Of a stretch of DNA of 64,000 nt, positions 48,820-64,000 are shown in pieces (the first letter of the stretch is position 1; each line of letters opens with the position of its first letter). The notes under the pieces are model-generated. The model saw nothing but the letters and a program-made list of their open reading frames with translations, searched no databases and was not told where the DNA came from. The DNA is from a virus. Lineage: Duplodnaviria; Caudoviricetes. The stretch lies in the IMG/VR virus record IMGVR_UViG_3300035208_004923, positions 192,001-256,000 of that record. One strand, given 5' to 3'. Position numbers and translations under genes: made by a program.

Positions 48820-49257
48820 TTAGATACTTGTTGTGTTTTTCTCAAACAATTTTGAAGCGATGTAATTTTTATCTTCCATTTTCAATTTTGCAGATTTGAT
48901 TCCTTGATTGAATCTTTGTTCGCATGTACTTGATTGTTCAGAACCAGTTGCTTCTCTATATTTTAATAGCATTTCCGCATGATTAGAACTGTTTGCAATT
49001 TTTTTGATTTCTAGTACAGATACCGATGTGCCGTTATTATCATTAAAGATTTTTACGATATGGTCACCTTCGTCGATTGGAATTAAGCTTTGTTTAGAAC
49101 CGAATTGTCTGATGAAAATAGAATTCTTAATCTCCCCTTCTTTACCTATTACAACGATTGCTCTTTTAAGATTATCGAACTCGGTATAAGATTCCCATAA
49201 GCAAGGTGTTCCCGATTTTGTGCGAGCAATTTTGATTTGTTTTTCGTTAATTTCCAT
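48820..49257 (-). CDS. Hypothetical protein
   Basis: 145-aa ORF with class-2 promoter. Confidence 0.55.
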   Translation of the reverse strand: MEINEKQIKIARTKSGTPCLWESYTEFDNLKRAIVVIGKEGEIKNSIFIRQFGSKQSLIPIDEGDHIVKIFNDNNGTSVSVLEIKKIANSSNHAEMLLKYREATGSEQSSTCEQRFNQGIKSAKLKMEDKNYIASKLFEKNTTSI

Positions 49258-49296
49258 ATGTTTAATTTATTGTTAATTTTTATTAATTTGTTTAAT

Positions 49297-49324
49297 ATAT
49301 TATACATAATAGTTAAATAGTTTT
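49297..49324 (-). promoter_or_regulatory. Class-2 promoter AAAACT-N13-GTATAATAT
   Basis: Near consensus. Confidence 0.55.
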
Positions 49325-49391
49325 ATATTTCAAATTTTCTTTAAATGCAATGTATATATAATTATATAAATAAATTATAAAAAATATAAAC

Positions 49392-49535
49392 ATGAAAAAA
49401 CTTACAGCTTTCTCCATAGAAGAATCAATTGCAGATGAATTTGATAAACTTGCAAAAGAAAATTCTTTAAACAAATCAAGTTACATACAAAAATATATGG
49501 AAGCTTATATAAAAAAATGCAAAGAAAATGTATAA
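49392..49535 (+). CDS. Ribbon-helix-helix (Arc/CopG-like) protein, 47 aa, not in ORF track
   Basis: Hand translation MKKLTAFSIEESIADEFDKLAKENSLNKSSYIQKYMEAYIKKCKENV; similar to 61507..61710. Confidence 0.7.
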   Translation: MKKLTAFSIEESIADEFDKLAKENSLNKSSYIQKYMEAYIKKCKENV

Positions 49536-50199
49536 AAATAAATGCAAAATATGTGGGCAGTTATTTAATGCTAAATCACCAGCTTCAAACCGTTGCGATA
49601 ACTGTATTACCGTAGAAAAACATTGCGTTCAATGCAATTCAGTATTTACCGTTATAAATTCAGACAAAGGTATTTCACAACAATTTTGTTGCAAAAGTTG
49701 CGCAGCAACGCATGTGCATAACAAGATCGACGTAAAGAAACGAATGTCAGATTTTCAAAAGAAACGTCAAAACACTCCTGCTGTTAAGGAAGCAAAATCA
49801 AAGTTTCAAAAAGAATACCAAAATAGACCAGAAGTAAAAGCTGAAACGTTCAAACGTTTACAACGATGTTTTAAATATAAAGAATTCATATTGCCGTCTG
49901 GAAAAATTGTTAAAATTCAAGGATATGAACCACAAGTTTTGACTGAACTTTTAAAAACGTATAACGAAGACGATATAATTATTGGTATAAAGGAAATGAA
50001 TAAATCAATTGGCAAAATTGATTATTTTTACGAAAATAACGTTCATACATACTACCCAGACTTTTATATTAAATCTATAAATACGATTATAGAAGTCAAA
50101 AGCGAATGGACGTATTCTAAAGAATTAGAAAAGAATTTAGCAAAACAACAAGCTTGCCTTGCTAAATTGTTTAATTTTGAATTCGTTATAATAAACTAA
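49528..50199 (+). CDS. Zn-finger + PD-(D/E)xK endonuclease (homing endonuclease-like)
   Basis: CKIC/CDNC/CVQC/FCCKSC; LPSGKIVKIQGYEP; HTYYPDFY...IIEVKS. Confidence 0.75.
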   Translation: MYKNKCKICGQLFNAKSPASNRCDNCITVEKHCVQCNSVFTVINSDKGISQQFCCKSCAATHVHNKIDVKKRMSDFQKKRQNTPAVKEAKSKFQKEYQNRPEVKAETFKRLQRCFKYKEFILPSGKIVKIQGYEPQVLTELLKTYNEDDIIIGIKEMNKSIGKIDYFYENNVHTYYPDFYIKSINTIIEVKSEWTYSKELEKNLAKQQACLAKLFNFEFVIIN

Positions 50200-50594
50200 T
50201 TAGTTTTATTTGCTTTAATTTGTTTGAATGTTTCGATATTAAAAGTAGTGTCATTTTCTTTTTCCCATTTTGCTATCATATCGGTAAGTTTTGATATTTC
50301 GGCATTTGCTGCATCATAAAAATCAAAACCTAATTTTGATGCGAGTATAGCCATATAAAATAAAGTATCACCCATTTCAGTTTTAATTTTTTCTTTGCGT
50401 TCTTCCGTTAAAATGCCGTCATCGTCACGCATCATTTTTTTAATTTCGTCACCGGCTTCACCCGCTTCTGCACACATTGCTAACGCAAGATATAGTAATT
50501 CTTCTCTTTTGGTTTCGCCTACAAAATAATATGTAGAGTTTACCATGTCTTGGAATTTGTTGAATTGTCCAAATCCGTTAATGCCCATTCCCAT
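50196..50594 (-). CDS. MazG-like NTP pyrophosphohydrolase
   Basis: EAGEAGDEIKKMMRD...EMGDTLFY. Confidence 0.85.
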   Translation of the reverse strand: MGMGINGFGQFNKFQDMVNSTYYFVGETKREELLYLALAMCAEAGEAGDEIKKMMRDDDGILTEERKEKIKTEMGDTLFYMAILASKLGFDFYDAANAEISKLTDMIAKWEKENDTTFNIETFKQIKANKTN

Positions 50595-50595
50595 T

Positions 50596-51444
50596 TTACT
50601 TTATATCAAAAAAATTACTTAATCCTTCAATGTATTGTTCGGTTGTTGCTTCTTCTGCTGCTTGATGTAATACAAACTCCGTGTACGATTTCGCATCCCA
50701 TGTCATTGAATATTCACCATCTTCATCAATGTCAAACATGCGTTTTTTCAATATAAATGACTTTGGCATTGTTAATAGTTCTTTTGTTATTTCATTTGCA
50801 ACATCAAAATGTCTTTCATAAAAATGTATATTATCGGCAAAATGATAATATGTTCCTAATTCCAAATCAGGATATTTTGTTTCTTTTAACCATAAATACA
50901 TATGCTGTTGAACAAAAGAAAAGAATGGCGCATCAAATGTAAAACCAAAAAATATATCATTTGACCGCATAGTAACTTTCATATTCAATTTATTTTTTCT
51001 TACAAAGAAATTTAGGGAAAACGTACATACGAAATCTTTATTTCCTTTGTATTGAAACTTAGGCTGATTTAAAAATGCAACTGCTTGTCTTGTATCAATA
51101 TCAGCAACTAAGGAGTCATAAACCCATCGTAGCTGTTTTCCAAATAATAGATTACCATAATTTGAATTTATTTCGCCATTTTCATCGGCAATTCTGTTCC
51201 AAAAACTTGAAAACGGTTTTATGTTATCCAATGATTTTTCTCTGCGTAAATACCATCCAAGTTCACCTGCTAAATATTTCCAGGGAAATTCTCTTGCTTT
51301 AAAATCAACAATTGGATAACGCGGGTCAATCTCCATCATTTCTAATAATGTTTCTTTGACTTTTAATCCTCTTGGATTTACTTCATTGTTGCTTTTTTGG
51401 ATTTTTTTAATTACTCTTACAAATTCTTTTGTTGCTGTTTCCAT
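50596..51444 (-). CDS. dCMP hydroxymethylase-like thymidylate synthase homolog (T4 gp42-like)
   Basis: GEINSNYG, DFVCT (catalytic Cys), MRSNDIFFGFTFD with Asp at the dUMP/dCMP specificity position, HFYERHF. Confidence 0.8.
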   Translation of the reverse strand: METATKEFVRVIKKIQKSNNEVNPRGLKVKETLLEMMEIDPRYPIVDFKAREFPWKYLAGELGWYLRREKSLDNIKPFSSFWNRIADENGEINSNYGNLLFGKQLRWVYDSLVADIDTRQAVAFLNQPKFQYKGNKDFVCTFSLNFFVRKNKLNMKVTMRSNDIFFGFTFDAPFFSFVQQHMYLWLKETKYPDLELGTYYHFADNIHFYERHFDVANEITKELLTMPKSFILKKRMFDIDEDGEYSMTWDAKSYTEFVLHQAAEEATTEQYIEGLSNFFDIK

Positions 51445-51447
51445 CTA

Positions 51448-52011
51448 TTACAAATTTAAAAATTCTTTTACTGATTTTTGAATTTCATTCAATGGTCTAT
51501 ATGTTTCATTTTTAGTTACGTCAATGATTAATTTATTTTTGATATGCGATTTACCAACCGCTTCAATAAATAATGAAATTTCTTTTTGTCTATCTTCTAA
51601 TTTACTTGATAACGAATGTCCATCCTCATTCGCAATAAGAAATTCTGGACTGCCTATTAATAAAATAAGATACGTATCGTTTGATATATCATATTCATAT
51701 TCTTTTTCTAAATCGAAAATCCACGAAGGATCATATTTTCGATAAATATTTCCATATACGTATTCTCCGATGTGTGACCTGTTCCATACGAACATATCAT
51801 CAGCATTTTTGAACATTGTCCTATAAATTTTTATTCTTTCAAATTCTATAGAAAAATCCGTTTGTTGAAATTCAATCTTTTCTTCGATTGTATTTCCTAG
51901 AGGTGTCATGAAGTGATGTTGTTCATAATTATTTTTGCTTAAAGATTCGATGTATTCAATCAATGTATCTTTTCCTGTTCGGTCACAGCCTTCAACAATT
52001 ATATGTTTCAT
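51448..52011 (-). CDS. dNMP (thymidylate-type) kinase
   Basis: IIVEGCDRTGKDT P-loop; NRSHIGEYVYG. Confidence 0.85.
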   Translation of the reverse strand: MKHIIVEGCDRTGKDTLIEYIESLSKNNYEQHHFMTPLGNTIEEKIEFQQTDFSIEFERIKIYRTMFKNADDMFVWNRSHIGEYVYGNIYRKYDPSWIFDLEKEYEYDISNDTYLILLIGSPEFLIANEDGHSLSSKLEDRQKEISLFIEAVGKSHIKNKLIIDVTKNETYRPLNEIQKSVKEFLNL

Positions 52012-52041
52012 ATAGTTATCTTGCTAAATTGTAAATTTATT

Positions 52042-52069
52042 ATTATATACATTAAGTATTAAAAGTTTT
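52042..52069 (-). promoter_or_regulatory. Class-2 promoter AAAACT-N13-GTATATAAT
   Basis: Exact consensus; heads the kinase/gp42-like/MazG unit. Confidence 0.65.
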
Positions 52070-52694
52070 CAATTGGAATGAACGGTATAGTGGTAACCAT
52101 ACTGTTATGATTTAAGTTAAATAATGAACAATTGTTTTCGCTTAACACGTGCGTAAGATTTTTATAAAGATTATTAATTTCTTTTAATTTGTCGTACTGT
52201 ACTAATTCGTGATGACCATCGTCTGCGTAAAAATGATTTGGTGTATAATCAACACCTAATATGCCTATTCGTCTAAAACCCATTTTATACGCTAATTGAA
52301 TTCCCATGTATGGCGAATCTAAGCCTGTGTCAATAATGGATTTCTCATTAATGTTTTTTAAATTTCCATGCGCACCAAAATTCATGTTATAAACGTTATC
52401 ATGTTTAAAGTTCCAAGATTCATCTTTTGCTATAATGTAATCTGGATTTGCATTTTCTATATCATATATTCTATTAGGTATATTTTTTGCTTCGAATCTT
52501 TTCTTTGTATCAATTAAAAATAATACGTTTGGCGTTACGAATTTGCAAATATCGTTTACCCCAATAGTAAAAACATCATCATCACTTTTGAATTTCTTTA
52601 CTGATGTCCCATTTCCTAATACAATGCATTTAGATTGTTTAAATTTTTTTGTATATATATCATTTAAATCTTTATACGCCATAGAAATATTCAT
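52059..52694 (-). CDS. Maf/DUF115-like (CST/GT42-related fold) putative nonulosonyltransferase
   Basis: CIVLGNGTS, TIGVND, QLAYKMGFRRIGILGVDY...HFY. Confidence 0.6.
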   Translation of the reverse strand: MNISMAYKDLNDIYTKKFKQSKCIVLGNGTSVKKFKSDDDVFTIGVNDICKFVTPNVLFLIDTKKRFEAKNIPNRIYDIENANPDYIIAKDESWNFKHDNVYNMNFGAHGNLKNINEKSIIDTGLDSPYMGIQLAYKMGFRRIGILGVDYTPNHFYADDGHHELVQYDKLKEINNLYKNLTHVLSENNCSLFNLNHNSMVTTIPFIPIENF

Positions 52695-53031
52695 TTGAAT
52701 TTAATGCTTTATCGTCAATGAATAAATCGAATAACGGTTTATCCATTTCTAATTTATGATATAAGCAACCCCATTGTGTTAATTGTTTGCTTGTAAGTTC
52801 CCTTAAATTTTGTCCTGACCCAACGCCACGCGATGTCCAATAAATAATGGTATGTCCTGACATGTATAAGTTATTAATACGCATTATTCGATTGTGATTT
52901 GGAATGGAGTTTTTATAATCTGTTCCTGGCGTTTTACATATTGTGTTATCAATGTCAACTCTGATTATCATACTTCCATTTTTTTGTTTTTCGGTTTTTT
53001 TCCCGAATATATTTTTCAAGAATCCTAACAT
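52672..53031 (-). CDS. Small HAD phosphatase (capsule-biosynthesis type)
   Basis: VDIDNTIC, WTSRG, KP, FIDDKA. Confidence 0.75.
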   Translation of the reverse strand: MLGFLKNIFGKKTEKQKNGSMIIRVDIDNTICKTPGTDYKNSIPNHNRIMRINNLYMSGHTIIYWTSRGVGSGQNLRELTSKQLTQWGCLYHKLEMDKPLFDLFIDDKALNSNEYFYGV

Positions 53032-53915
53032 TATATTCCTCTTAGAGATTTTCTTTTATCTAGTTCCGATTCGTGAACAATTCTTTCGTTTATAATATCA
53101 GGACCCATTGCAATTTCAAGTTCTTTCAATCCTTTTATTAATTTTGATTGACCTATAGGTTCAACTGATGCCATTTGGTCAGATCCCCATAATGTTCTGT
53201 CTCGCGTAATGTGTCTTTCAATATATTCTGCTCCAATAACAGCAGCAGCAAAAGTAGCAGTTAAACCAAATTCATGACCACTATATCCTATTGAAGTTTT
53301 GTCGCCATATTTTGTAATTAGGTGCTTAATATAGTTTAAATTTATTCCTTCTAATGGAGATGGATATGCAGAATTTGTATGAAATAAAACATCTGGCATC
53401 CCCTCGGCAACAGCAATTTCGATTTCACGTTCTGTACTCATGCCAGTAGATAACATAAGTATATCAGCGGCAGATCTTGCATATTTAATTAATGCAGTGT
53501 CAGTAATCAATGCAGATGGTATTTTCATGATTAATGGTCGTTCTTCTATTCCAACCGTAACATCGTGTAATTCGATTGCAAAATTAACAGAATCAATATC
53601 CCATACAGATAGAAAAAAACCTATTCCTAAATCCATTGCTAATATGTATAACATTGTGTAATCTGCAATGTCTAATTCAATATCTTTCTTATATTGCAAA
53701 TATGTTATAGGTTCTTTTTCCCATGGAACGGATTTCATCACATGTTTTTGACTTTCAGGAATACATATGTCAGGATTTCTTTTTTGAAACTTTACATAAT
53801 CAAATCCTGACATTGCCGCAAGTCGAACAAGATTCATTGCGTTATCAATAAATTTTGTTTTATCTGTGCCATACGCATAATTGATACCTATTTCTGCTAT
53901 AGTTTTTGTTTTCAT
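53031..53915 (-). CDS. neuB: N-acetylneuraminate/nonulosonate synthase, lacking the C-terminal SAF domain
   Basis: IAEIGIN, VKFQKR, KIPSA, LSTGMS, GYSGHE, IERHIT, GSDQMASVEP. Confidence 0.9.
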   Translation of the reverse strand: MKTKTIAEIGINYAYGTDKTKFIDNAMNLVRLAAMSGFDYVKFQKRNPDICIPESQKHVMKSVPWEKEPITYLQYKKDIELDIADYTMLYILAMDLGIGFFLSVWDIDSVNFAIELHDVTVGIEERPLIMKIPSALITDTALIKYARSAADILMLSTGMSTEREIEIAVAEGMPDVLFHTNSAYPSPLEGINLNYIKHLITKYGDKTSIGYSGHEFGLTATFAAAVIGAEYIERHITRDRTLWGSDQMASVEPIGQSKLIKGLKELEIAMGPDIINERIVHESELDKRKSLRGI

Positions 53916-54556
53916 ATAATATTGTTACTAAAAGGTATTTCGATATGAACGCTGTAATCAATAACTGCATTCGATAAATCTGAGAATCCAGTAGATTGCG
54001 TTGCAATTATTGGATTTACACAAAAACATGGGACTGACTTTTGTAAAATTGAAAAGTAAACATCACCAACATCTTCTGGAACAATGATTGCATTTGTTTT
54101 TGTGAATTGTTCTATGATGATATCATAAACACAACTATTGTAGCATATTGCATGCGAACAATATGAATTTGTTATTCTTATTAAATTTTCTGATACTTTG
54201 CGTTGTTTTGCACCATTTATGTTTGCACCTAAATAAAACATATGCCAATCAATATTTGAAATCTGTTCATTGGCTTTTGTTAATGTAGATGTAACATTAT
54301 TTGCGTGTAGAAATTTTACATCATCTTCTAAAATTAATATGTTTTTTAATTTTTTTTCTTTTGCATATATTAGCAAATTAAGAATAGACTTTATTAATCC
54401 GATTCTACCATCTTCGTGCGTTATTGCACTTAATCTTTGTACTTTATTTCGTATACCAAGCGTATCGAATTCTTTTACAACAGATTCCCATCTGTCAGGT
54501 CTTCTATCCAAATTAATACACCAAATTTCTTCAAAAAAATCAAACGGATTATTCAT
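53912..54556 (-). CDS. Glycosyltransferase family 25
   Basis: CINLDRRPDRW, ILILEDD, FYLG. Confidence 0.8.
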   Translation of the reverse strand: MNNPFDFFEEIWCINLDRRPDRWESVVKEFDTLGIRNKVQRLSAITHEDGRIGLIKSILNLLIYAKEKKLKNILILEDDVKFLHANNVTSTLTKANEQISNIDWHMFYLGANINGAKQRKVSENLIRITNSYCSHAICYNSCVYDIIIEQFTKTNAIIVPEDVGDVYFSILQKSVPCFCVNPIIATQSTGFSDLSNAVIDYSVHIEIPFSNNII

Positions 54557-55280
54557 TGCATTCTATGTATTTTTCGTTCTGTAAATTTTCAAATGCAGCA
54601 TGTTCATTTTCATCAAATTCTGCGCCATGAATTCTAGTACCGCTATGAATTTCTACTGATTGCCCAATTAATTGAATAAAATTATTGCTATCAACCACGT
54701 CTATAAATCCGGGCGCAAATCCATGAATTATACAACGCAATGTATAATTTGAATGTTCATGTCCATACTTGTGCGGTAAAACTTTAAAGTATCCAATATT
54801 CTTTACAATATTTTTTGTTAACACTAGCATACATCCATTAGTATGATCTGATTGAATTACATTGAAATCATTCTTTTCAATATTTTTTGTATTTTTATGA
54901 TCTCCAGGCACTTGATAGCATAAATGTTCAATTCCTGTATTTTCTATTGCATCAACATACTGTTTAACAAAATCTGGACTAACAACTTTCATGTCATCAT
55001 CAATTAAGAAACAAATATCATATTCATTTTCTTCAAAATACTTTATAGCTGTATTTTTGCATTTTGCAATACCGCCATTATACGTTCTGTTAATGATATG
55101 AAACTTATCTTTATATGTTTCCAATAATTCGTTATGAAGTTTGTTTGTCGATGCATCATTTACAATTACCACTTTGGCATTTACATTAATAAATGAATCT
55201 AAACATTCTTTTATTATTTTTATACGATCATCTGATGCTTTATCTGATACATATGTTGATATTGCTATACATATTTTCAT
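54549..55280 (-). CDS. Glycosyltransferase family 2
   Basis: VIVNDAS, GIAKCKN, FLIDDD, GHEH. Confidence 0.75.
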   Translation of the reverse strand: MKICIAISTYVSDKASDDRIKIIKECLDSFINVNAKVVIVNDASTNKLHNELLETYKDKFHIINRTYNGGIAKCKNTAIKYFEENEYDICFLIDDDMKVVSPDFVKQYVDAIENTGIEHLCYQVPGDHKNTKNIEKNDFNVIQSDHTNGCMLVLTKNIVKNIGYFKVLPHKYGHEHSNYTLRCIIHGFAPGFIDVVDSNNFIQLIGQSVEIHSGTRIHGAEFDENEHAAFENLQNEKYIECNE

Positions 55281-57481
55281 ACGCCTTGTATTTTTAATTT
55301 ATTTTGGCAAACATATATTCCAAAGATTCTCTCCATCGAGTGTTCATGCGTTCCGCCATTTTTATCATTTGATTTTCCTTTATTGAATTTGCTGTAAGTT
55401 TCATCTATATTAATTTCTTCAAAGAATTTTTCCCATAAATCCCCTTTAACCCAAAACATTGTTCCGCCAATAAAGAAACTAGTTGTTTCCCAATTACTCC
55501 AGTTTAATTTAGTTGCATATTGCTTGATTATTTCTAGGTTCTGCTTTGTATACCATTCATTTATGTTAAATGTAATTCTCCATTTATTTGAACCTACCAT
55601 GCCTACATCAGGTGCATTCAAACAATTGATGCATGTCATAACATTATCTTCACTTCCGCATAATGGCTGTATTAATGCATTACGCCATACTTCACCATGC
55701 ACAATTCTAGCTTCATTAATGTCACCTGGGTCTATACTTTTCTTCGTGTGGATTTTCAAATAGTAATCATAATGCATATTATTTTTTGCAATTTCTTTCA
55801 TAGTAAGAAATGTTGGCCCAATATCCATTCCGATATTTCCAGCAGTTATGAATATGACTTTGTGCATCAAATCAGAATCTTTGAATATTTTCTTAAGTCG
55901 CATTGTTTCTAACATGCTAGTGTTATCAGGTATTGTTACGTATACATCACTAGGATATTTGATATTTTTAATACTATCTATAAATTCTTTTACTAAATCT
56001 ATATAATATAAATGCATCAGAACAGCAATCTTTGCTTTGGATTCTTTAACAACAGGTATCTCATACGCATTCGGGTCAAAGTAATGTTTGCAAAAAGGTG
56101 TAAAATGAAATGCATGATAATTGAATGCTTTTACATTGCTATCAGACAATATCCACATTTCAGCTTTGTAACGATCTCTACCGGTTACTGTATATGTTTC
56201 ATTTAATGAATTCAATTTTTTTATATAGGAACTATTTGCACACCAGAAGTTACCTGCATAATGATCTTTGTACCAGCTATTAGCTTCGCCCAGAATCATA
56301 CTTGTACCGACGGTATCGTATTTTTCAAGTAATGACATGTTACGTTCCCAATGGTCAAATACAAAGTGCTCCATATATTTTCGCCATGAACCTAATTTAT
56401 TTGCATCATAATTTTGTAATCTAGATGATGAGCCTTTTGTGTGAAAGTATATACATTTGAAATCTTCAGTTTGCGAATCATTTCGTAAAATCTCAAGTAT
56501 TGGCATTTCAGCATCACTTATATTTTCACTTTTATATACGCATTCAAATTTTTTTGGTAATTTAGGCAATAATTTGATATTTCCCACTACACTATATAAA
56601 ATCTTATTAGCCGCATCGTATATGCCTGTATCTTTTAACGTTTTTATTTGGTCGTTTATTATTTCGATACATGAATCATCAATTAAACCAATATGATAAT
56701 AAATTTTTATTTTCTTGGTGTTTTTTGGCAAAATCGAATTATCTATCATGCCATCAACAAATGTCAAGCCATTTTCCTTTTTGCATGTTCGTATGTACGG
56801 CATTTGCATTTCTTTCGATATTTGTATTGGATTTGCTGATATAAACGCATCAAGATCCTTTGCCGTGTCAACATCGATTGTATCATTTATTTTATGAAAT
56901 ATGGTATTCGGGTAATACAAATTTTGATTCAGTAAAGAAACAATCGCAGGTTCAAATATTGCAACAAAATGAGAAATCTCAAAAACTTTTGGATAATCTT
57001 GTCTTCTGTATAAATCGTGTTTAATTACCTGTTCTCCAAATAATGCATTTTTTTCAATCATCATAAGATATGGACTTTGCTTTACATCCTTTTTACATAG
57101 TAGCGAGTTGCCTCTATGCATTCTTAATTTTGCATACGCATTTTGAATATCTTCCCATGTACGTTCTGGGTACGTGAGATACAACATAATAATTGTTGAT
57201 TGAATTCTTTGTGTTGCTATAAATTCATTAACAAGCGTTTTTGTTGACGCATTATCTGTTGCTGAAGATTCAGTTCTTCTATGAACTTTAACACCTTTGC
57301 TTTCGCATATTTGCTGTATGTATTCATCATCTGTGCTAACCCATACTTTATTAATGTAAAACGATGGTATTGAATTTAGCGTATAATCCAACAGTCTCCT
57401 GTTTTTGAAAGGGAGCCCTTTGCTCCCTTTCCTTGCAGGAATTAAAATTATAAAGTTATCATCAACAAGAAACTTGCTCAT
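55277..57481 (-). CDS. Fusion: CMP-nonulosonate synthetase (NeuA) + GT-like domain + RgpF-like domain
   Basis: IPARKGSKGLPFKN, VSTDD; IYFHTKG...HYAGNFW; HLYYIDL, GMDIGP, KIHTKKS, GGTMFW, HSMER. Confidence 0.75.
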   Translation of the reverse strand: MSKFLVDDNFIILIPARKGSKGLPFKNRRLLDYTLNSIPSFYINKVWVSTDDEYIQQICESKGVKVHRRTESSATDNASTKTLVNEFIATQRIQSTIIMLYLTYPERTWEDIQNAYAKLRMHRGNSLLCKKDVKQSPYLMMIEKNALFGEQVIKHDLYRRQDYPKVFEISHFVAIFEPAIVSLLNQNLYYPNTIFHKINDTIDVDTAKDLDAFISANPIQISKEMQMPYIRTCKKENGLTFVDGMIDNSILPKNTKKIKIYYHIGLIDDSCIEIINDQIKTLKDTGIYDAANKILYSVVGNIKLLPKLPKKFECVYKSENISDAEMPILEILRNDSQTEDFKCIYFHTKGSSSRLQNYDANKLGSWRKYMEHFVFDHWERNMSLLEKYDTVGTSMILGEANSWYKDHYAGNFWCANSSYIKKLNSLNETYTVTGRDRYKAEMWILSDSNVKAFNYHAFHFTPFCKHYFDPNAYEIPVVKESKAKIAVLMHLYYIDLVKEFIDSIKNIKYPSDVYVTIPDNTSMLETMRLKKIFKDSDLMHKVIFITAGNIGMDIGPTFLTMKEIAKNNMHYDYYLKIHTKKSIDPGDINEARIVHGEVWRNALIQPLCGSEDNVMTCINCLNAPDVGMVGSNKWRITFNINEWYTKQNLEIIKQYATKLNWSNWETTSFFIGGTMFWVKGDLWEKFFEEINIDETYSKFNKGKSNDKNGGTHEHSMERIFGIYVCQNKLKIQGV

Positions 57482-58962
57482 TAGAATAATTTTTTTGCTT
57501 TATCGTTTACAGTTGCTCTGTTTTGATGTTTATTATTTTGTCTGAAATCTTTTTCATTTGAAAATGGTAATTCGCCATTTATGAATTTCATTACTTCCAT
57601 TGCAAAATGACTAGCAGTTACAACAGGAACGTTTTGTGAAATTTGTTGTGTTGCAGCATTTCCTTTTTCATTTTCCCACATGTTGAAATCATGAGGATGA
57701 CCCATTAGCCAAATCAATTCACGTAGAGTTAAAAATCTCATTTTAGTAGGGTGCATACCACGATACATGTTTCTTCCAACAACGGCGTTGAAATGTCCAT
57801 GGAAAAAGTGTGGTGAATTGTCCCACCATCCCATTTTTTTCGCTAATTTATTTTTAACGTGAACAAGATTTTTGATTTCCCATTCAGCAGCTTCAGCATC
57901 AGCGTAATCTTTTCTGATTACTTCAATTGCTTCATCAATTTTGCCTGTCCATGCAAGATGATTATGTAATGTAGTATGGTCATGTTCAGCAACCCATTCA
58001 GCGTGTGTTTTATTATTTTGTTTCAACACCCAATCATATGATGGGTAAACTGGTGTTGTCCATTCTTCACCATCGTGCTGATAAACACCTTCAGGAATTT
58101 GTGCTAAAAAGTCAGGTAAGAAAGCTTCATCTCTCGACATAAAATTCATAATAGGTGCAGTTTCGCTATTCCAGAAGAAATAGAATGTACGTTCACGTTT
58201 TTGTGGAACGCCATGCAATAATGAATTTGTTTTCATTAATGAAAATGAATATCCAAATTCTTTTGCAATTTCCGCTAATTTTGTTGCAACACCTACACCA
58301 GTTTTAGTAAATAAAGCAGGTGCATTTTCACCCCAAAGAACTTTAGGTTTTACATGTTCAAGAACAAATCTTGCGGATTTGTACATCCATTGATTTTGAA
58401 TTGCATCAGAGCCACGTGACATTTCTGAACGACCTTTCGATGCATTTAAACTTGATAAACCAGCGCATGGCGGTACCGCATTCATAAAATCGACATCTTT
58501 AAATGCTTCAGCTAATAATGAAAGACTTTTCTTTTCCTCAGCAGATTCAGTGTTTGCAAACATTGGAATATCATATTCATCGAGATTATGATATGGAACA
58601 TCTGGCCAGTAATCAACTAAACTTTTTTCGTTACCCATAAATCCTGAAAATGTAACCATAAAATCAGGTTTCTTTTGCGTTGCTAATGCGCAGCCCATTG
58701 ACATACCGCCGATAAGTGGTATAATAGTTCCCCATTTAAAAGGCTTGCCATCATTTTTTAATACTGGTCCGTTTTCAAATTCTTTTAATGTATACGGATA
58801 TTTATTTTCAGGTGCAACATATGTACCGCTGTTTGGGATTTTAGAACCTTGAATCATTACTTTAGGTAACGCAACAATTTCTTCAATTTCTGTTTGATTG
58901 CAGTCGCATTCAACTACAGGAATACGTTTTTTTGTTTTAACAATTTTTTGTTCTTTACTCAT
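57481..58962 (-). CDS. C5 cytosine DNA methyltransferase-like protein
   Basis: PPCAGLS (IV), GENAP (VI), PQKRERTF (VIII), RFLTLRE (IX), SQNVP (X); motif I atypical (IPLIGG). Confidence 0.75.
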   Translation of the reverse strand: MSKEQKIVKTKKRIPVVECDCNQTEIEEIVALPKVMIQGSKIPNSGTYVAPENKYPYTLKEFENGPVLKNDGKPFKWGTIIPLIGGMSMGCALATQKKPDFMVTFSGFMGNEKSLVDYWPDVPYHNLDEYDIPMFANTESAEEKKSLSLLAEAFKDVDFMNAVPPCAGLSSLNASKGRSEMSRGSDAIQNQWMYKSARFVLEHVKPKVLWGENAPALFTKTGVGVATKLAEIAKEFGYSFSLMKTNSLLHGVPQKRERTFYFFWNSETAPIMNFMSRDEAFLPDFLAQIPEGVYQHDGEEWTTPVYPSYDWVLKQNNKTHAEWVAEHDHTTLHNHLAWTGKIDEAIEVIRKDYADAEAAEWEIKNLVHVKNKLAKKMGWWDNSPHFFHGHFNAVVGRNMYRGMHPTKMRFLTLRELIWLMGHPHDFNMWENEKGNAATQQISQNVPVVTASHFAMEVMKFINGELPFSNEKDFRQNNKHQNRATVNDKAKKLF

Positions 58963-58970
58963 TTTTATTT

Positions 58971-59573
58971 TTATAAGTTGTTTATAAATGGATTTTCGTG
59001 TTTTACATGATGTATTTCAAAATTCTTTATACGTTTTTCGTACATGTGAATAAATTTACTAGCTGCAAGTAATCCTGCAATAGAATCTTCATATATATGA
59101 AGTTCATCAGTTGAACTATGAAATTGATGTTTTATTTTTTCAAACGCTGTAACGTAAACATCAGGTTCAGGCTTACGTTTAATACCGCTATACGTTCCGA
59201 CGATATCTTGCCATGGAACAGTATTAGAAAATTTCTTATTTAGCATTGTTGTTACAAGTTCTTCATTTGTATTTGTAACAATGTAATATTGATGATCTAT
59301 TCGATTATTTTTAAAATCGGGTAGTTTGAATATGATTTCATCAAAGTAAGTATTGATATAATGATGTTCTTTTACTTTTTTGATTTCTGCAATTTCATCG
59401 ATTGAAAAATTTAATCCTTGTAAGAATTTGTTTGAATCATCGTAAATAAAATCATTAAAATAGTTAAAATCGAATTGTATGTCAAAATCTTTTAGTGCTT
59501 CTTTATATGAAAGATATAATGCTTTTCTCGTCAGTGCTAGAGTATCGTCCCAATCGTAGAAATGCCACTTCAT
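58971..59573 (-). CDS. HAD hydrolase (beta-PGM-like)
   Basis: YDWDDTL, VTN, KPEPD, EDSIAG. Confidence 0.75.
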   Translation of the reverse strand: MKWHFYDWDDTLALTRKALYLSYKEALKDFDIQFDFNYFNDFIYDDSNKFLQGLNFSIDEIAEIKKVKEHHYINTYFDEIIFKLPDFKNNRIDHQYYIVTNTNEELVTTMLNKKFSNTVPWQDIVGTYSGIKRKPEPDVYVTAFEKIKHQFHSSTDELHIYEDSIAGLLAASKFIHMYEKRIKNFEIHHVKHENPFINNL

Positions 59574-59902
59574 TAAATCAAGTTATTAGAATGTTTTATT
59601 TCAACTATTTTTTCTTTATCATTCGATTTAAAAATTAATTTTGTATCATCCCAACGCATGTTAGGGTCAACAAAAACATCTGCGTGTTTTAACTTAATGA
59701 TTTTGTATGTTTCAGGATTTTTGATTAGTCCAAGACTTGGTTTAATCACTGGCAGCTGTTGTGCTTCGAATGCATCCATTAAAAAGGTGCCTAATTGCGC
59801 ATTTGTTATGATTTTGTTATATGAAGCTTGTTCATTTATAAAAACCATAATTTGTTTTAGACCATCCCACGGGCCTAAATTAGAAATATCAATTACTTCC
59901 AT
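59573..59902 (-). CDS. Hypothetical protein
   Basis: 109 aa, TAATG-coupled. Confidence 0.55.
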   Translation of the reverse strand: MEVIDISNLGPWDGLKQIMVFINEQASYNKIITNAQLGTFLMDAFEAQQLPVIKPSLGLIKNPETYKIIKLKHADVFVDPNMRWDDTKLIFKSNDKEKIVEIKHSNNLI

Positions 59903-59926
59903 TGTTTTAGATTTAGAAATTATATT

Positions 59927-60646
59927 TTATATATTGCTTGCTTTTGCTATGGCAGAACTTACATCTGTATCATCTGATTGATATGTCAAATCAATCCAAT
60001 GTTCAACAACTGGTGTAATTGTACGTTTCTCGATTGAATTGAAAAACTCTGTAATTTCATACTCTTTACGTTTTACGGAAGGTGATAAATCATTCAATTT
60101 TCTAAAGCCATCCGGTGTAAAATAAGCAAAACCGATAAAGAATTTGCCTTCTCTGTATAGATGAGGTTTTTCTATTAACTTGTTTCCGTCGATTGCACCA
60201 AATCTTTCATTTGTCGAATCTTTTTCCAATTCCTTATATGTTGCAACCGCATCGAATTCTTTCAGTAATGATTTGTCGAATTTACCTTTAACAAAGTTAT
60301 CACCAAAAAGAACAAGTACATCTTCTTGATTATCTGGTAGCCAAGGCAGTAGTCCTGCACCAGGACCATATTTATCGGTATCTTGGAATTTGAATGATAG
60401 ATTTATTTTCTCTGCTGAAAATTTTTCGACATACGAAACTAAATTTGATACAACATCATTACCAATTTCGCCATAATATGTAATATCACATTGATTTCGT
60501 GAAACTGTTACGCAAATATCTGTTATTCCATTTTCGATGCAAAAGTCGATATTATACTCTGGTAATGTCTTGTCATTAAATTTTGCAAGTAATTTATTTT
60601 TTCCGTATCTTGTTGAATTACCTGCACATAGTATGATTGCTTTCAT
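59927..60646 (-). CDS. Sugar-1-phosphate nucleotidyltransferase (RmlA-like)
   Basis: AIILCAGNSTRY...K, GDN, IEKP, EYEITE. Confidence 0.85.
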   Translation of the reverse strand: MKAIILCAGNSTRYGKNKLLAKFNDKTLPEYNIDFCIENGITDICVTVSRNQCDITYYGEIGNDVVSNLVSYVEKFSAEKINLSFKFQDTDKYGPGAGLLPWLPDNQEDVLVLFGDNFVKGKFDKSLLKEFDAVATYKELEKDSTNERFGAIDGNKLIEKPHLYREGKFFIGFAYFTPDGFRKLNDLSPSVKRKEYEITEFFNSIEKRTITPVVEHWIDLTYQSDDTDVSSAIAKASNI

Positions 60647-60906
60647 TATTTTTTATCTTTTATAAAGTTCACAATTCTATTCGGTATTGTTGCCCAATCA
60701 TTTCTATTCATTCCATAATTTATAGGCAATGAATTATCGTCATCTTCTATTAATAAATACCAATAATTGTCGAAGTCATCTGAATAAATGTTATACACTT
60801 GATGTATGCCAGGTATATAATCCGGCAAATTTGCAATACGTTTCAATTTTATCATATTGCCAGGTATATAACCTTCTACTTCAATAATATCATTTAATTC
60901 TATCAT
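60646..60906 (-). CDS. Hypothetical protein
   Basis: 86 aa, TAATG-coupled, class-2 promoter upstream. Confidence 0.5.
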   Translation of the reverse strand: MIELNDIIEVEGYIPGNMIKLKRIANLPDYIPGIHQVYNIYSDDFDNYWYLLIEDDDNSLPINYGMNRNDWATIPNRIVNFIKDKK

Positions 60907-60928
60907 ATATCTTTTATTTCCTATTGTT

Positions 60929-60956
60929 ATTATATACAGAACAATTTTTTAGTTTT
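60929..60956 (-). promoter_or_regulatory. Class-2 promoter AAAACT-N13-GTATATAAT
   Basis: Exact consensus; heads the glycan operon. Confidence 0.65.
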
Positions 60957-61413
60957 ACTTTCCAATTTTCACAGAATTAATATCAATGTCATTCATGTAA
61001 TTTTTTGATACTTTTCCTTTTTTCATTTCTTCAATTAAAAAAGAAATTGTATCTCTAATCATTATATGAACTGATTTTTGAGGTTCCCAACCTATTGCTT
61101 TTGCTTTGTCAATATTTGCAACAATCGTATGAGCTTCACCATTAATTTCTGGCATATATACGATAGGTATTCTTACATTAAGATACGTATAAATAATTTC
61201 AACAATTTCACGTAATGAATGCGATTCGCCTCTTCCTAAATTGAAAACTTGATTATCTGTTTTTCTATCTTCAATACATTGTATATGAAAATTATTCACA
61301 TCATCAACATGAATAAAATCTCTACGTCTTGTTTCATCGCCAAAAATGATAGGGCCATCACCATTCATTAATCGAATTGCAACGCCAGCAAATAAAGGTG
61401 GTATTGTTCTCAT
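60955..61413 (-). CDS. Stand-alone C-terminal half of the NAD-dependent epimerase (duplicated fragment)
   Basis: About 55% identical by manual alignment to the C-terminus of 62499..63521 (RRRDFIHVDDVN, PEINGEA, ANIDKAKA); lacks GxxGxxG and YxxxK. Confidence 0.75.
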   Translation of the reverse strand: MRTIPPLFAGVAIRLMNGDGPIIFGDETRRRDFIHVDDVNNFHIQCIEDRKTDNQVFNLGRGESHSLREIVEIIYTYLNVRIPIVYMPEINGEAHTIVANIDKAKAIGWEPQKSVHIMIRDTISFLIEEMKKGKVSKNYMNDIDINSVKIGK

Positions 61414-61422
61414 TTATTTATA

Positions 61423-61450
61423 TTTATATACATAGATTTCAGAAAGTTTT
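61423..61450 (-). promoter_or_regulatory. Class-2 promoter AAAACT-N13-GTATATAAA
   Basis: Directly upstream of the ATG of the epimerase fragment. Confidence 0.6.
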
Positions 61451-61506
61451 AATTTTTCTAAACATCATTTTAATATATAATTTATAAAATTAATAATTTT
61501 TACAAT

Positions 61507-61710
61507 ATGAAAAAAGCTCAAGCATTCTCAATATCAGAAGAAACAATTAAAAAACTTAACATCGTGTCAAAGGCGATGGGTTTTAATAAGTCGGCCATTG
61601 TCGAATCTCAAATAATAAAATTTATTAAACAGATTGAGAATGGGATGTATGATGGCTGTGAAAACTTATCAGAACAAATAAAAGAATTATATGAAAAAGA
61701 AAATTTGTAA
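61507..61710 (+). CDS. Ribbon-helix-helix (Arc/CopG-like) protein
   Basis: MKKAQAFSISEETIKKLNIVSKAMGFNKSAIVE. Confidence 0.7.
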   Translation: MKKAQAFSISEETIKKLNIVSKAMGFNKSAIVESQIIKFIKQIENGMYDGCENLSEQIKELYEKENL

Positions 61711-62524
61711 ATTTTGCGGCAATGAATTTATGTCAAGACATGATAATCATATGTTTTGTACGAGGTCGTGTTCCATGAATTATAGACACCAGGATCCTAC
61801 ATATACGCAGAACATAAAAGAAAAAGTCACGGTAACAAAAAACACACCCGAGTTTAAAAAAGAGCAAAGTGTCAGGTCGTCTAAACAAATAGCTGAATTG
61901 AAAATAAATAACCCTATAAGATTTCAAATGCAATTAGACAATATGAATAGAGGTTTTAAAGATTGGATATCTATTGATGATAATCGTAAACACTTGTCTG
62001 ATAAAACAACTGAATTTTTTGAAGATCCTGTGAATAGAAAAAATTTATCAAACAAACGCATGGAATATTATGCCGTACCCGGTAATATTGAAAAACAACG
62101 TGTAATAAACAAAGAAATCCAAAACAGACCAGAAGTACGCGAAAAACAACGATCTCATTGGCGAGATGACGAATACGCAGATAAACGATTAAAACAAAGA
62201 TATAAATTTAAAAAGTATGAGATGCCGTCAGGAAGAATCGTACACGTACAAGGGTATGAAAATTTCGCCATTGACCTTTTATTACAACAATATGAGGAAA
62301 ACGATATTGTGGTAGCATGCGACGGTATCTCAAAATTTACTGGCGTTATCGAGTATGAACTTAACGGAACTCATACATATAAACCTGATATTTATATCAA
62401 ATCAAAAAACATGATAATAGAGGTTAAATCTGCTTATACATATAATGCGGCAAAAAAACAAACCCATGCAAAAGCGCAGGCTTGTGTGAATCTTGGATTT
62501 ACTTTTTATCTGATGATATTGTAA
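61691..62524 (+). CDS. Zn-finger + PD-(D/E)xK endonuclease (homing endonuclease-like)
   Basis: CKFC...FCTRSC; QNRPEV; MPSGRIVHVQGYE; HTYKPDIY...IIEVKS. Confidence 0.75.
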   Translation: MKKKICKFCGNEFMSRHDNHMFCTRSCSMNYRHQDPTYTQNIKEKVTVTKNTPEFKKEQSVRSSKQIAELKINNPIRFQMQLDNMNRGFKDWISIDDNRKHLSDKTTEFFEDPVNRKNLSNKRMEYYAVPGNIEKQRVINKEIQNRPEVREKQRSHWRDDEYADKRLKQRYKFKKYEMPSGRIVHVQGYENFAIDLLLQQYEENDIVVACDGISKFTGVIEYELNGTHTYKPDIYIKSKNMIIEVKSAYTYNAAKKQTHAKAQACVNLGFTFYLMIL

Positions 62525-63521
62525 CTTCTTCTATATTTATATTATCCATATAATCTTTTGGGAAATAGCCGTTCTCATAAAGATCTTTAAGATACCCTAT
62601 TAAATCTTCATGGCCTTCATCAAATTTTACCTGTGGCTCCCATCCCAGTGCTTTAGCTTTATCAATATTTGCATAGATTTCAAATGCTTCCCCATTAATT
62701 TCGGGAAGATGGTTTATTTCGTATTTATTGATTTTTAAGCTATTTGCTATACTCTTAATCATCTCATATAAAGAATAACTTTGTCCTGTTCCAAGATTGA
62801 AGACTTCGTTATCTGTTCTACTGTCTTGTATACATTGTATATGAAATCTATTAACATCATCAACATGTATGAAATCTCTACGTCTATTACCGTCTCCAAA
62901 TACTATTGGATTGGCACCGTTTAATAGTCTTATAGCAAACCCGCATGATGCAGGCGGGACTGTTCGTTTCCAATCCTGTAATTTTCCGTAAATATTAAAA
63001 TAGCGTAAACCTGTGTATGTTAATCCTTTTGTTTTGCGATATGATTCTGCTAACAAATGCAAACATGCTTTTGATGTTGCATAAATTGTTCCCGGATTCC
63101 ACTCTGATTCAACATGTGGCAAAATTTTTGAATCTTCATACATTGCAGATGTTTCTGAAAAAATAACTTTTTTCACATTATTTTCAATGCATGCATCAAA
63201 CACATTGATTGAACCCATTATGTTATTTGAAAATGCTTCCATTGGATTTTTATCGCAGTCATAAATTGAAACTAATCCCGCAAAATGAAATACATAATCA
63301 ACATCTTTAAAATGATTTTTAATATCATGATATCTTATGTCATCTTCAATTAATGTTATTTTATCATGAACACCTTCTAGAAAAGTGCCATGCGACATAT
63401 TGTCGATTCCTATAATATTTTCTTTTGGATTGGTTATTACATTTTTAGTAATCAAATCGTTAATTAAATTTGTGCCAACGAATCCACATGCGCCTGTTAT
63501 TAAAATCTTAGGTTCTTTCAT
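62499..63521 (-). CDS. NAD-dependent nucleotide-sugar epimerase/dehydratase (extended SDR)
   Basis: ITGACGFVG, YATSK, LRYFNIYG; start moved from 63629 to the ATG at 63521 (MKEPKILITG), downstream of the promoter. Confidence 0.9.
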   Translation of the reverse strand: MKEPKILITGACGFVGTNLINDLITKNVITNPKENIIGIDNMSHGTFLEGVHDKITLIEDDIRYHDIKNHFKDVDYVFHFAGLVSIYDCDKNPMEAFSNNIMGSINVFDACIENNVKKVIFSETSAMYEDSKILPHVESEWNPGTIYATSKACLHLLAESYRKTKGLTYTGLRYFNIYGKLQDWKRTVPPASCGFAIRLLNGANPIVFGDGNRRRDFIHVDDVNRFHIQCIQDSRTDNEVFNLGTGQSYSLYEMIKSIANSLKINKYEINHLPEINGEAFEIYANIDKAKALGWEPQVKFDEGHEDLIGYLKDLYENGYFPKDYMDNINIEEVTISSDKK

Positions 63522-63545
63522 ATATTTTCTTATTAATATTTTATA

Positions 63546-63573
63546 ATTATATACATTAATGACAAATAGTTTT
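63546..63573 (-). promoter_or_regulatory. Class-2 promoter AAAACT-N13-GTATATAAT
   Basis: Exact consensus. Confidence 0.65.
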
Positions 63574-63646
63574 TTGACGAAATGATTAAAAATATTCACA
63601 ACAAGTTTCCTTTTTTGCTTGTTTGTCAAAAATCACAAACTGATAT

Positions 63647-63657
63647 GAATATATAAA
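63647..63657 (+). promoter_or_regulatory. Late-type promoter GAATATATAAA
   Basis: Exact motif upstream of the ATG at 63673. Confidence 0.6.
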
Positions 63658-63672
63658 TTAAAATTAAGTATT

Positions 63673-64000
63673 ATGAAAGTATATACAACACAAATTATTG
63701 AAAAAATTTATGAAGACTATTACGCAGGTCGTCAATCAAAAATATCAGACATATGCTATAATAAAATGACGGGTTATCGAAAGGCCGGCATTATGTTTTC
63801 TTTTTCGCCACAAGAATTACTTGAATATTCAAAGTGTGCAACAGATCCCATTTATTTTATAGAAAAATATTGTACAGCATCAACAATAAACGGTATTCAA
63901 CATATTTTATTGCGAGATTACCAAAAAGATATTGTAAAGAAATACATTGACTACAGATTTAACGTTGTTATGAATTCTCGACAAACCGGGTTATCAACAA
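63673..64000 (+). CDS. Terminase large subunit-like protein (T4 gp17-like), 5' part, runs off the window
   Basis: Hand translation ...EYSKCATDPIYFIEKYC...LRDYQKDIV...RFNVVMNSRQTGLST. Confidence 0.8.
   Translation, partial: MKVYTTQIIEKIYEDYYAGRQSKISDICYNKMTGYRKAGIMFSFSPQELLEYSKCATDPIYFIEKYCTASTINGIQHILLRDYQKDIVKKYIDYRFNVVMNSRQTGLST

Follow-up and report, generated by a model that had tools for sequence, protein, structure and literature searches.

Does a phage that makes its own sialic-type sugar place it on its DNA? The question is raised by a 421-kb jumbo phage in which T4-like genes for modified cytosine adjoin a mobile, putative gene set for a sialic-acid-like sugar. We analyzed the 64,000-nucleotide stretch that holds both sets (the window), the features of which are summarized in Table 1. 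Each of the gene families named in the original prediction was found as one intact open reading frame on the minus strand, with matches to MazG, thymidylate synthase (TS), small HAD, NeuB, GT25, GT2, NeuA plus DUF8361 plus RgpF, C5-methyltransferase (MTase), HAD_2, NTP transferase and epimerase families; the matches were weak for the thymidylate kinase-like protein and for the MptE/Maf-like protein (weak in Pfam, with the fold confirmed). These genes had been described as one contiguous minus-strand island, and they do share the strand, but their contiguity is interrupted by a plus-strand DUF7487 ORF (with a second copy at 49528-50199), a duplicate of half of the epimerase gene and two small ORFs. 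Positions 46000-64000 were reproduced, with 0 to 2 differences, by contigs from two public DNA runs, which may be the source samples, in two pieces overlapping at a short repeat (54504-54550). The system also reaches past the window, to GT-B genes at contig C1:260073-261425 and about 269639-271100.

Table 1. Genes and promoters of the island, in window coordinates
Feature	Position	Strand	Support or remark
MazG-family nucleotide pyrophosphohydrolase, putative dCTPase	50196..50594	-	PF03819 over cut-off; phrog_229 E 8e-22
T4-type dCMP hydroxymethylase (HMase)	50596..51444	-	best PDB match T4 gp42, E 4e-19
dNMP kinase, thymidylate kinase type	51448..52011	-	PF02223 weak; phrog_761 E 4e-11
Class-2 (replication-gene type) promoter for kinase-HMase-MazG	52042..52069	-	genome-wide motif family
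Maf/CstII-fold (GT42-like) nonulosonate transferase candidate, single domain	52059..52682	-	fold match
Small capless HAD phosphatase, putative NulO-9-phosphate phosphatase	52672..53031	-	phrog_1238 E 2e-25
SAF-less NeuB nonulosonate synthase	53031..53915	-	PF03102 E 2e-48; SAF match absent
GT25 glycosyltransferase, variable part	53912..54556	-	PF01755
GT2 glycosyltransferase, variable part	54549..55280	-	PF00535 E 1e-12
NeuA (CMP-nonulosonate synthetase)-DUF8361-RgpF fusion	55277..57481	-	PF02348 residues 11-120; PF05045 residues 472-727
C5-cytosine MTase, C-terminal KKLF tag, DNA-directed	57481..58962	-	PF00145, 78.9 vs 22 bits
HAD_2 phosphatase, probably NDP-sugar supply	58971..59573	-	PF13419; kept in L089, L091
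109-aa ORF, weak gp23-type capsid-fold likeness	59573..59902	-	phrog_28442 E 0.007
Late-type promoter (AATATATAAAA)	59925..59935	-	heads 109aa-HAD-MTase-NeuA-GT2-GT25-NeuB-HAD-Maf unit
RmlA-like sugar-1-phosphate nucleotidyltransferase	59927..60646	-	PF00483/PF12804; TIGR01208 below cut-off
Duplicated 3' half of epimerase	60955..61413	-	55% identical over 151 aa
DUF7487 endonuclease-like ORF, probably mobile	61691..62524	+	PF24308 E 6e-27
NAD-dependent NDP-sugar epimerase/dehydratase	62499..63521	-	PF01370 E 1e-42; own class-2 promoter about 63546-63573

The catalytic residues C140 and E61 of the HMase align with C148 and E60 of gp42, in the TS fold. Read against the diagnostic residues of TS homologs (N177D, L143D/E and D169N; PMC13326640), its D171 corresponds to N177D, the mark of dCMP preference, and its D137 to L143D of ThyA, where D or E goes with a hydroxymethyl product. 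A 5-hydroxy-dCMP synthase of the RB69/DLP3 type (D169N) was considered and rejected: the HMase and 64 close homologs carry RSND with D163, and since D169 is kept in this way, the enzyme is not a 5-hydroxylase. The dNMP kinase keeps its position in relatives, and a separate ThyX is encoded on the phage. The signature residues and the separate ThyX uphold the predicted pathway to 5-hydroxymethylcytosine (hmC), and HMase, kinase and MazG enzyme, judged by sequence, should make hmC DNA. From these gene identities we infer the activities: the HMase would convert dCMP to hm-dCMP, the kinase would phosphorylate it, MazG would remove dCTP and ThyX would supply dTMP, so that hmC would replace C in the DNA. 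This system would be expressed in the middle period. The two GT-Bs outside the window, putatively clamp-tagged and 5 and 14 kb past the island, are the likely hmC sugar transferases (a homolog of the second folds like T4 beta-GT) and would add one or more NDP-sugars, supplied by the RmlA-like enzyme, epimerase, HAD and an APH-like kinase; donor supply for the GT-Bs is the probable role of the RmlA-like enzyme. The epimerase reached none of the NCBIfam equivalog cut-offs. The MTase has PC at 165-166, ENA (ENV-like) at 212-214 and an atypical motif I. A PF12851 (5mYOX) profile search gave zero matches on the phage, but its control also gave none.

The second gene set was predicted to make, activate and transfer a nonulosonate, and at the gene level this route is complete, with NeuB, HAD, NeuA and an enzyme of Maf/CstII fold. 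The structure model of the last (pLDDT 90.6; gene start probably 52682) matched CstII in Foldseek (E 2e-5), and it aligned with Maf (5mu5) over 187 residues at Z 14.1 and rmsd 4.0 and with MptE at Z 10.9. By sequence it matched the sialyltransferase family phrog_4603 (E 2e-5) and, below cut-off, PF01973 (MptE-like), and a profile search of PDB gave no match. Its invariant residues are G27/G29/S31, DSPY, GVD, H154 and H162, the last two forming a His pair that we take to resemble that of sialyltransferases. NeuB, with 6ncs as best PDB match (290 aa), is 50-63% identical to viral-type copies and about 40% to cellular ones, the nearest of which are largely from Bacteroidota/Chlorobi/Ignavibacteria; its group is mainly viral, with relatives at at least 482 places in IMG/VR. 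The small HAD is EcbF-BcbF-like, below cut-off, and 70 of 80 viral NeuB loci have a homolog of it close to NeuB. DUF8361, the GT-like middle domain of the NeuA fusion, is almost wholly viral and also occurs in giant viruses, there fused to GT17; in one relative (L091) NeuA stands alone, unfused. The GT25 is 42% identical to each half of a tandem GT25 at C1:378353 and is missing from its slot in L089, L091 and L094. The phrog_28442 family, to which the 109-aa ORF is weakly linked, also matches a major head protein. Membrane segments were found in none of the cassette proteins, and a flippase was likewise absent from the cassette.

NeuC (PF02350) was found nowhere in the assembly, and DegT (PF01041) only on other contigs, with no match on the phage; controls matched in both searches. 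NeuB, HAD phosphatase and CMP-synthetase without NeuC or aminotransferase is the make-up of a CMP-Kdn pathway, and the cassette is probably Kdn-type. Equivalogs for Neu5Ac/Leg (NeuB_NnaB) or Pse (PseI, PseF) were rejected (145 versus 400, 104 versus 340 and 46 versus 206 bits). NeuB would condense PEP with a host hexose-6-phosphate, in the simplest case Man-6-P to give Kdn-9-P, which the small HAD would dephosphorylate before NeuA makes the CMP-sugar; host ManNAc-6-P or another sugar phosphate may take the place of Man-6-P. A relative (L330) carries a NeuD-like acetyltransferase.

The predicted class-2 promoter between the two gene sets is a member of a genome-wide motif family. Under a strict pattern the motif has 15 copies, 14 of them within 130 nt of a start, and under a relaxed one 71 copies versus 10.5 in shuffles. 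Further copies stand upstream of the genes for the putative clamp, the helicase and ThyX, of both DNA GT-B genes and of the unit of the RmlA-like gene, and most relatives have a similar motif upstream of the kinase. The late-type motif lies within 70 nt of a start in 43 of its 56 copies, at genes that include those read as head protease, baseplate, tail tube and terminase, and its core is kept in L089 and L091 in differing reading frames of the upstream gene. The unit that it heads is gapless (gene gaps of -11 to +8 nt). The two classes would be active in the middle and late periods, respectively.

A terminal K-x-LF is found on 9 of the 455 phage proteins, versus 0.3 expected, including ligase, PolB, an RNase H-type exonuclease, the MTase and a GT-B; on the second GT-B the tag is N-terminal. 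Terminal LF recurs in homologs of the MTase (13/14), GT-B (4/5) and alpha-GT (4/4), and in none of those of the Maf-like protein (0/90), NeuA (0/79) or NeuB (0/83); none of the cassette transferases (Maf, GT25, GT2, NeuA fusion) carries K-x-LF. A model of the putative clamp with the GT-B tail scored 0.50 versus 0.00 for the best control. The mark was reached by 51 of 78 solved pairs and 2 of 108 mismatched ones, contact agreement was 36% and partner pLDDT 41+, and the result weakly suggests that K-x-LF is a sliding-clamp tag.

The Maf-like family is located between head and baseplate genes in phages, and in another phage (L199) within the operon from head protease to portal. In bacteria its domain is fused to GT2/GT4 domains and lies beside eCIS_core genes. 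To our knowledge, eCIS particles carry no DNA.

Linkage of the two gene sets across relatives, proposed as a check of the DNA version, holds in the phage's own clade, where 8 related loci have Maf, kinase and HMase side by side, among them loci with another subtype of HMase (L091) or of NeuB (L094, L097). It breaks within that clade, where the gene next to Maf is instead the downstream core gene (L334, L096, L099) or a canonical ThyA gene (L331), and is absent elsewhere: among comparison contigs that are mostly fragments, no dCMP enzyme lay within 8-10 kb of a viral NeuB (0/80 and 0/73 IMG/VR loci examined), and no NeuB was found in 28 contigs with close HMase relatives, one complete genome included. 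Sister phages carry HMase, kinase and MTase along with sugar-activation genes and either alpha-GT or GT-B, and they lack NeuB; conversely, NeuA/NeuB/HAD clusters occur in phages where the dCMP enzyme was not found (LR756508.1, G015, G024), and G008 has NeuB, NeuA and Maf without it, the syntenic site being covered. In a second phage group, a dCMP enzyme lies about 10-23 kb off in 10 of the 11 site-spanning Maf-cassette contigs, with no GT-B or MTase homolog detected.

A target other than DNA is favored by the K-x-LF distribution, by the class of promoter and by the neighborhoods in which Maf-like genes lie. We consider it moderately probable that these are two adjacent systems and that the second puts a nonulosonate on the virion; the earlier caveat that there may be two systems is supported. 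We infer sugar and acceptor as follows: expressed late, the Maf/CstII-fold enzyme would act in the cytoplasm and place the sugar on virion proteins or on a short protein-borne glycan built by GT2, GT25, DUF8361 and RgpF, and the outcome would be a particle with an acidic sugar coat. Against this reading stand the adjacency in 8 loci despite subtype swaps, the translational coupling of the cassette to a tagged MTase, and the dCMP enzyme of the second phage group.

Remodelling of the host surface, in which the soluble glycosyltransferases and the Maf-like enzyme act at the cytoplasmic face on LPS core, O-unit or protein O-glycan intermediates and so block superinfection or grazers, is unlikely. 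GT25, GT2, RgpF, WbsX, GT11 and GT29 of the cassettes are surface-polysaccharide families, the closest cellular NeuBs have the distribution given above, and cyanophage sugar islands including KdsA/KdsB were so interpreted (PMC12801897). However, a late-type promoter is late for superinfection exclusion, the Maf family sits within virion and eCIS operons, DUF8361 is shared with giant viruses, and the cassette has neither membrane proteins nor flippase.

We regard as rather improbable a single system in which the nonulosonate goes on DNA, capping a glycan started on hmC by the GT-Bs or set directly on the hydroxymethyl by the Maf-like enzyme. That a CstII/Maf-fold enzyme would thus place a self-made nonulosonate on hmC or its glycan in packaged DNA, giving a 'sialylated' base, is equally doubtful. 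The conserved adjacency, the gapless unit shared with the tagged MTase and the dCMP enzyme of the second group, there without detectable GT-B, speak for it, as do the fold in common with MptE, whose substrate is a hydroxymethyl-heterocycle, and the report that phage glycosyltransferases in E. coli put Kdo, an ulosonic acid, as well as uronic acids on hmC (bioRxiv 10.1101/2023.12.21.572611). There, Pyle et al. prospectively assigned a Kdo appendage on hmC, so that the earlier statement that no precedent exists was too strong; sialyl and neuraminate terms are absent from their text. That precedent is a GT-B, however, not a CstII fold, and the DNA version is further weakened by a tag on none of the cassette proteins, by promoter class and Maf context including eCIS loci, and by cassette and dCMP enzyme each persisting without the other. 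For a transferase that attaches the second or third sugar, clamp binding would not be required.

That the Maf-like protein is no sugar transferase (for instance an MptE-like pyrophosphokinase in nucleotide or hmC metabolism, another island glycosyltransferase using the CMP-sugar) would suit MptE as second-best fold and sole Pfam match and the Maf-like genes of phages without NeuB (G012, G013), but is very improbable given CstII and Maf at the top of the fold ranking, the His pair, bacterial fusions to glycosyltransferases and, in most cassettes, a position immediately next to NeuA or HAD-NeuB.

The hmC genes resemble the T-even hmC/glucosyl-hmC pathway and the RB69, DLP3 and RL38J1 clusters (PMC13326640) in a TS-fold dCMP enzyme with N177D and L143D, adjacent nucleotide kinase, MazG-type pyrophosphatase, GT-B transferases, and HAD, NTP transferase and APH-like kinase for sugar supply; unlike in those, D169 is kept, dTMP comes from ThyX, a C5-MTase is co-encoded and the GT-Bs lie 5-14 kb away with a K-x-LF tag. 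With the 5mYOX/MTase/GT clusters of Pyle et al., including GT94 Kdo-mC, they share MTase, epimerase, HAD and APH-like kinase neighbors, and those clusters show that an ulosonic acid can go on hmC; in contrast to the island, they modify DNA after replication (TET), with GT-A/GT-B enzymes and host donors. Like the CMP-Kdn pathway of Bacteroides thetaiotaomicron and Prymnesium parvum (PMC6200933), the cassette has a NeuB-family synthase, HAD phosphatase and CMP-synthetase and does not need NeuC, but it is phage-encoded, its NeuB SAF-less and of a mainly viral group and its HAD EcbF/BcbF-like. The Maf-like enzyme shares with Maf flagellin transferases (5mu5) and CstII/GT42 the catalytic fold, solubility and a neighboring CMP-nonulosonate pathway; it differs as a stand-alone 207-aa domain without Maf accessory domains, at 13-15% identity, and occurs in virion regions of phages and in eCIS loci. 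For mycobacteriophages (Freeman et al. 2023, cited in PMC12619734) and giant viruses, decoration of particle proteins by soluble virus-encoded glycosyltransferases has likewise been proposed; unlike them, this phage would also make its own acidic nine-carbon donor.

Phage-made sialic-type sugars are apparently undescribed in the literature within reach of our search. Since the enzymes are all small and soluble, the target of the sugar can be tested in E. coli. If it sits on DNA, the base would be new, and so would action on DNA by an enzyme of the CstII/Maf fold. K-x-LF offers a simple rule by which, in these jumbo phages, glycosyltransferases that act on DNA can be told from others. If the sugars coat virions, acidic shields would be common in large aquatic phages, and possibly on eCIS particles, and would affect adsorption, stability, grazing and immune recognition.

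C1, the phage contig of 425 kb that carries the window at positions 192001-256000, has a 4,593-nt terminal overlap and was closed into a circular T4-like jumbo phage genome of 420,768 nt. The contig was binned into a small MAG (1.6 Mb, phage included), and this membership was not accepted as evidence on the host of the phage; a TAnnTTTG-containing motif enriched upstream of genes on the contig, which we take to resemble Bacteroidota promoters, serves as a lead only. Landfill and groundwater metagenomes contain identical DNA and are possibly the source samples themselves. GATC is strongly depleted across C1, with an observed/expected ratio of 0.35; this suggests that a host restriction system acts at GATC and is not stopped by the cytosine modification. 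An N-terminal RIP-T/S/N-L/F/I-D/E-E/D motif recurs in at least 41 proteins and probably directs a very numerous class of internal proteins to the capsid and marks them for protease cleavage.

All genes named in the original prediction for the sugar/nucleotide island were found as intact ORFs of the families stated, and the promoter placed between the nucleotide and glycan genes is real; the island is not contiguous as claimed, since a DUF7487 ORF on the plus strand and a second copy of the epimerase 3' half lie within it. This endonuclease-like DUF7487 gene adjoins the duplicated half with its own promoter, an arrangement that a mobile endonuclease cassette would show; one further DUF7487 gene occurs elsewhere in the window, and another inside the hydroxymethylase region of locus L093. 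Paralogs or fragments of gp23 fold lie among the modification genes, and the longer one, a major-capsid paralog, was ruled out as a base-modifying enzyme.

Coordinates of the features discussed (window positions unless a contig or locus is named)
Feature	Position	Strand	Remark
Predicted hmC genes	50196-52011		MazG, dCMP hydroxymethylase, kinase
Promoter	52069-52042		
Nonulosonate cassette	52059-57481		NeuA fusion to Maf-like gene
C5-MTase	57481-58962		tagged
gp23-fold, 109 aa	59573-59902		weak
gp23-fold, 300 aa	C1:258335-259237		clear
DUF7487 and epimerase 3' half	60955-62524		
Further DUF7487	49528-50199		
RIP-motif examples	27027-27413, 28884-30030, 30795-31490		
First GT-B	C1:260073-261425		
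Second GT-B	about C1:269639-271100		
Poly-A tract	C1:~271050 (L336:~13050)	minus	12 A
Phosphonate cluster	C1:161649-165911 (L008:6649-10911)	minus	outside window; putative families, order read by eye: cytidylyltransferase-PEP mutase, phosphonopyruvate decarboxylase, NTP transferase, AEP transaminase
Bacterial Maf-like fusions	L137:9011-14044, L164:9950-12574, L171:10001-12658, L172:9926-12691		GT2/GT4/methyltransferase; 2 beside eCIS_core

The nearest solved structure to the thymidylate synthase (TS) homolog is T4 gp42. Because it carries N177D and L143D and keeps D169 intact, it reads, by the residues diagnostic for TS-family enzymes (PMC13326640), as a dCMP hydroxymethylase, an activity predicted from sequence. 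A phage thymidylate synthase was ruled out by N177D and the phage's own ThyX, and a 5-hydroxylase by the retained D169. Upstream of the same kinase-hydroxymethylase pair, sister phages hold a HAD, an NTP-transferase/kinase fusion, a second GT-B and one or two C5-cytosine methyltransferases (MTases), as well as an alpha-GT (phrog_2888) or, alternatively, a GT-B; NeuB is absent from this gene set. Both GT-B orthologs are kept in this phage at relocated positions, so candidate sugar transferases for hmC are already available from beyond the island: an Atlas search marks the first as GT-like, and the second has a homolog whose model (pLDDT 67) matches the T4 beta-GT fold (E 3e-6). A poly-A tract shifts the reading frame between the tagged N-terminus and the rest of the second GT-B, reflecting either phase variation or an assembly error; its homologs are continuous across this position. 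The MTase, of which relatives often have two, is kept beside the hydroxymethylase, which suggests partial hmC substitution or another reaction on hmC, because full substitution would leave the MTase without a substrate. Dozens of large IMG/VR phages (L001, L013, L016-L085) have a dCMP hydroxymethylase-type gene (50-55% identical), near which no kinase, MTase or GT-B homologs were detected.

In the nonulosonate (NulO) cassette, NeuB is without a SAF domain and falls below the NeuB_NnaB and PseI cut-offs, the small HAD comes next, with a homolog close to NeuB at 70 of the 80 viral NeuB loci compared, and neither NeuC nor a DegT-type aminotransferase was found on the phage. This gene content fits the phosphorylated Kdn route (PMC6200933), whose predicted product would here most simply derive from host Man-6-P. 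Aminoethylphosphonate for the cassette's glycan might come from the four-gene phosphonate cluster. The 207-aa Maf-like protein, a candidate nonulosonate transferase with an invariant His pair, is closest in its modelled fold to CstII and Maf and next closest to MptE; a profile search of PDB sequences with its alignment gave no match. RNA runs X6 and X8 yielded low-depth contig pieces that match segments of NeuB, GT2, the NeuA fusion and the MTase at 99-100% identity; they were set aside as expression evidence because contigs cannot show transcription.

A terminal K-x-LF motif, a putative sliding-clamp tag, ends 9 of 455 phage proteins versus 0.3 expected, among them ligase, PolB and an RNase H-type exonuclease (PHROG matches), the MTase and a GT-B, together with putative RNase HII, NADAR and macro-domain proteins; the second GT-B bears it N-terminally, not C-terminally. 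The tag is retained in homologs of the MTase (13/14), GT-B (4/5) and alpha-GT (4/4), and terminal K-x-LF was found in none of the Maf-like (0/90), NeuA (0/79) or NeuB (0/83) homologs. A putative clamp at C1:147021-147764, which has no PHROG match and was named from its size and position, was modelled as a trimer together with the GT-B tail; the predicted complex scored 0.50 versus 0.00 for the best control, on a mark reached by 51 of 78 solved and 2 of 108 mismatched pairs; with contact agreement of 36% and partner pLDDT of at least 41, the model lends weak support to binding. Most simply, the tagged enzymes would travel with the replisome and the cassette transferases would not; a tag might still be dispensable for an enzyme that adds a terminal sugar. 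Net charge did not discriminate between the enzymes (Maf -1, GT-B +3). From the 109-aa ORF through the Maf-like gene, ORFs abut or overlap behind a late-type motif that precedes virion genes elsewhere in the genome and is conserved in both L089 and L091. The class-2 promoter belongs to the kinase, both GT-Bs, epimerase, RmlA unit, clamp candidate, helicase and thyX. The tagged MTase is located in the late unit, into which read-through from the RmlA promoter may occur.

The proposed linkage of neuAB/maf to gp42 homologs was kept in loci of the phage's own clade, but it is broken within that clade and elsewhere. The order (NeuB)-HAD-Maf followed directly by kinase-hydroxymethylase recurs in L089, L091, L093, L094, L097/L104, L098, L101 and L330 (the L093 and L101 contigs start past the point where NeuB would be seen), despite another hydroxymethylase subtype in L091 and another NeuB subtype in L094/L097. 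Within the same Maf clade, Maf is followed directly by the next core gene, without kinase-hydroxymethylase, in L334, L096 and L099, and neighbors baseplate-side genes in L333 and canonical ThyA in L331; linked and unlinked copies intermix in the Maf tree, which lost many rows in trimming and was used for intermixing only. Among contigs that are mostly fragments, with gene order common to kin, a dCMP-type enzyme lay within 8-10 kb of NeuB in 0/80 and 0/73 IMG/VR loci (partly overlapping sets), NeuB was present on 0/28 contigs with close hydroxymethylases, and no dCMP enzyme was found in LR756508.1, G015 or G024, which have NeuA/NeuB/HAD. The hmC and NulO clusters of G018 are ~25 kb apart, and G008 has the full cassette with only a kinase at the corresponding dCMP-enzyme site.

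Phage NulO cassettes are widespread (at least 482 IMG/VR matches), and no description of them was found in the literature searched, nor a direct one of phage NeuB or sialyltransferase, eCIS glycosylation or a clamp tag on DNA-modifying enzymes. Many large phages have Maf-like genes that stand by themselves, and another phage has one inside its head protease-to-portal operon. DUF8361 occurs almost exclusively in viruses, and giant viruses have it fused to GT17. In bacteria, the Maf-like domain is N-terminal in fusions adjoining eCIS_core genes, making glycosylation of contractile injection particles possible; since eCIS particles are not known to hold DNA, the domain would not be modifying packaged DNA there.

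Remodeling of the host surface by the cassette appears unlikely, and placement of the nonulosonate on DNA slightly more so. The latter has a partial precedent in the prospective Kdo-mC of Pyle et al., and it is kept alive by a second phage group with the same cassette between head and baseplate genes (in L332, NeuB is 61% identical and the DUF8361-RgpF pair is the same), where, on 10 of 11 cassette contigs, a single dCMP enzyme lies ~10-23 kb from the cassette and neither GT-B nor MTase was detected. The cassette is best read as a virion glycosylation system using a Kdn-like sugar, a reasonably probable reading, and the island as a whole appears to represent two systems sharing one variable sugar/nucleotide locus.
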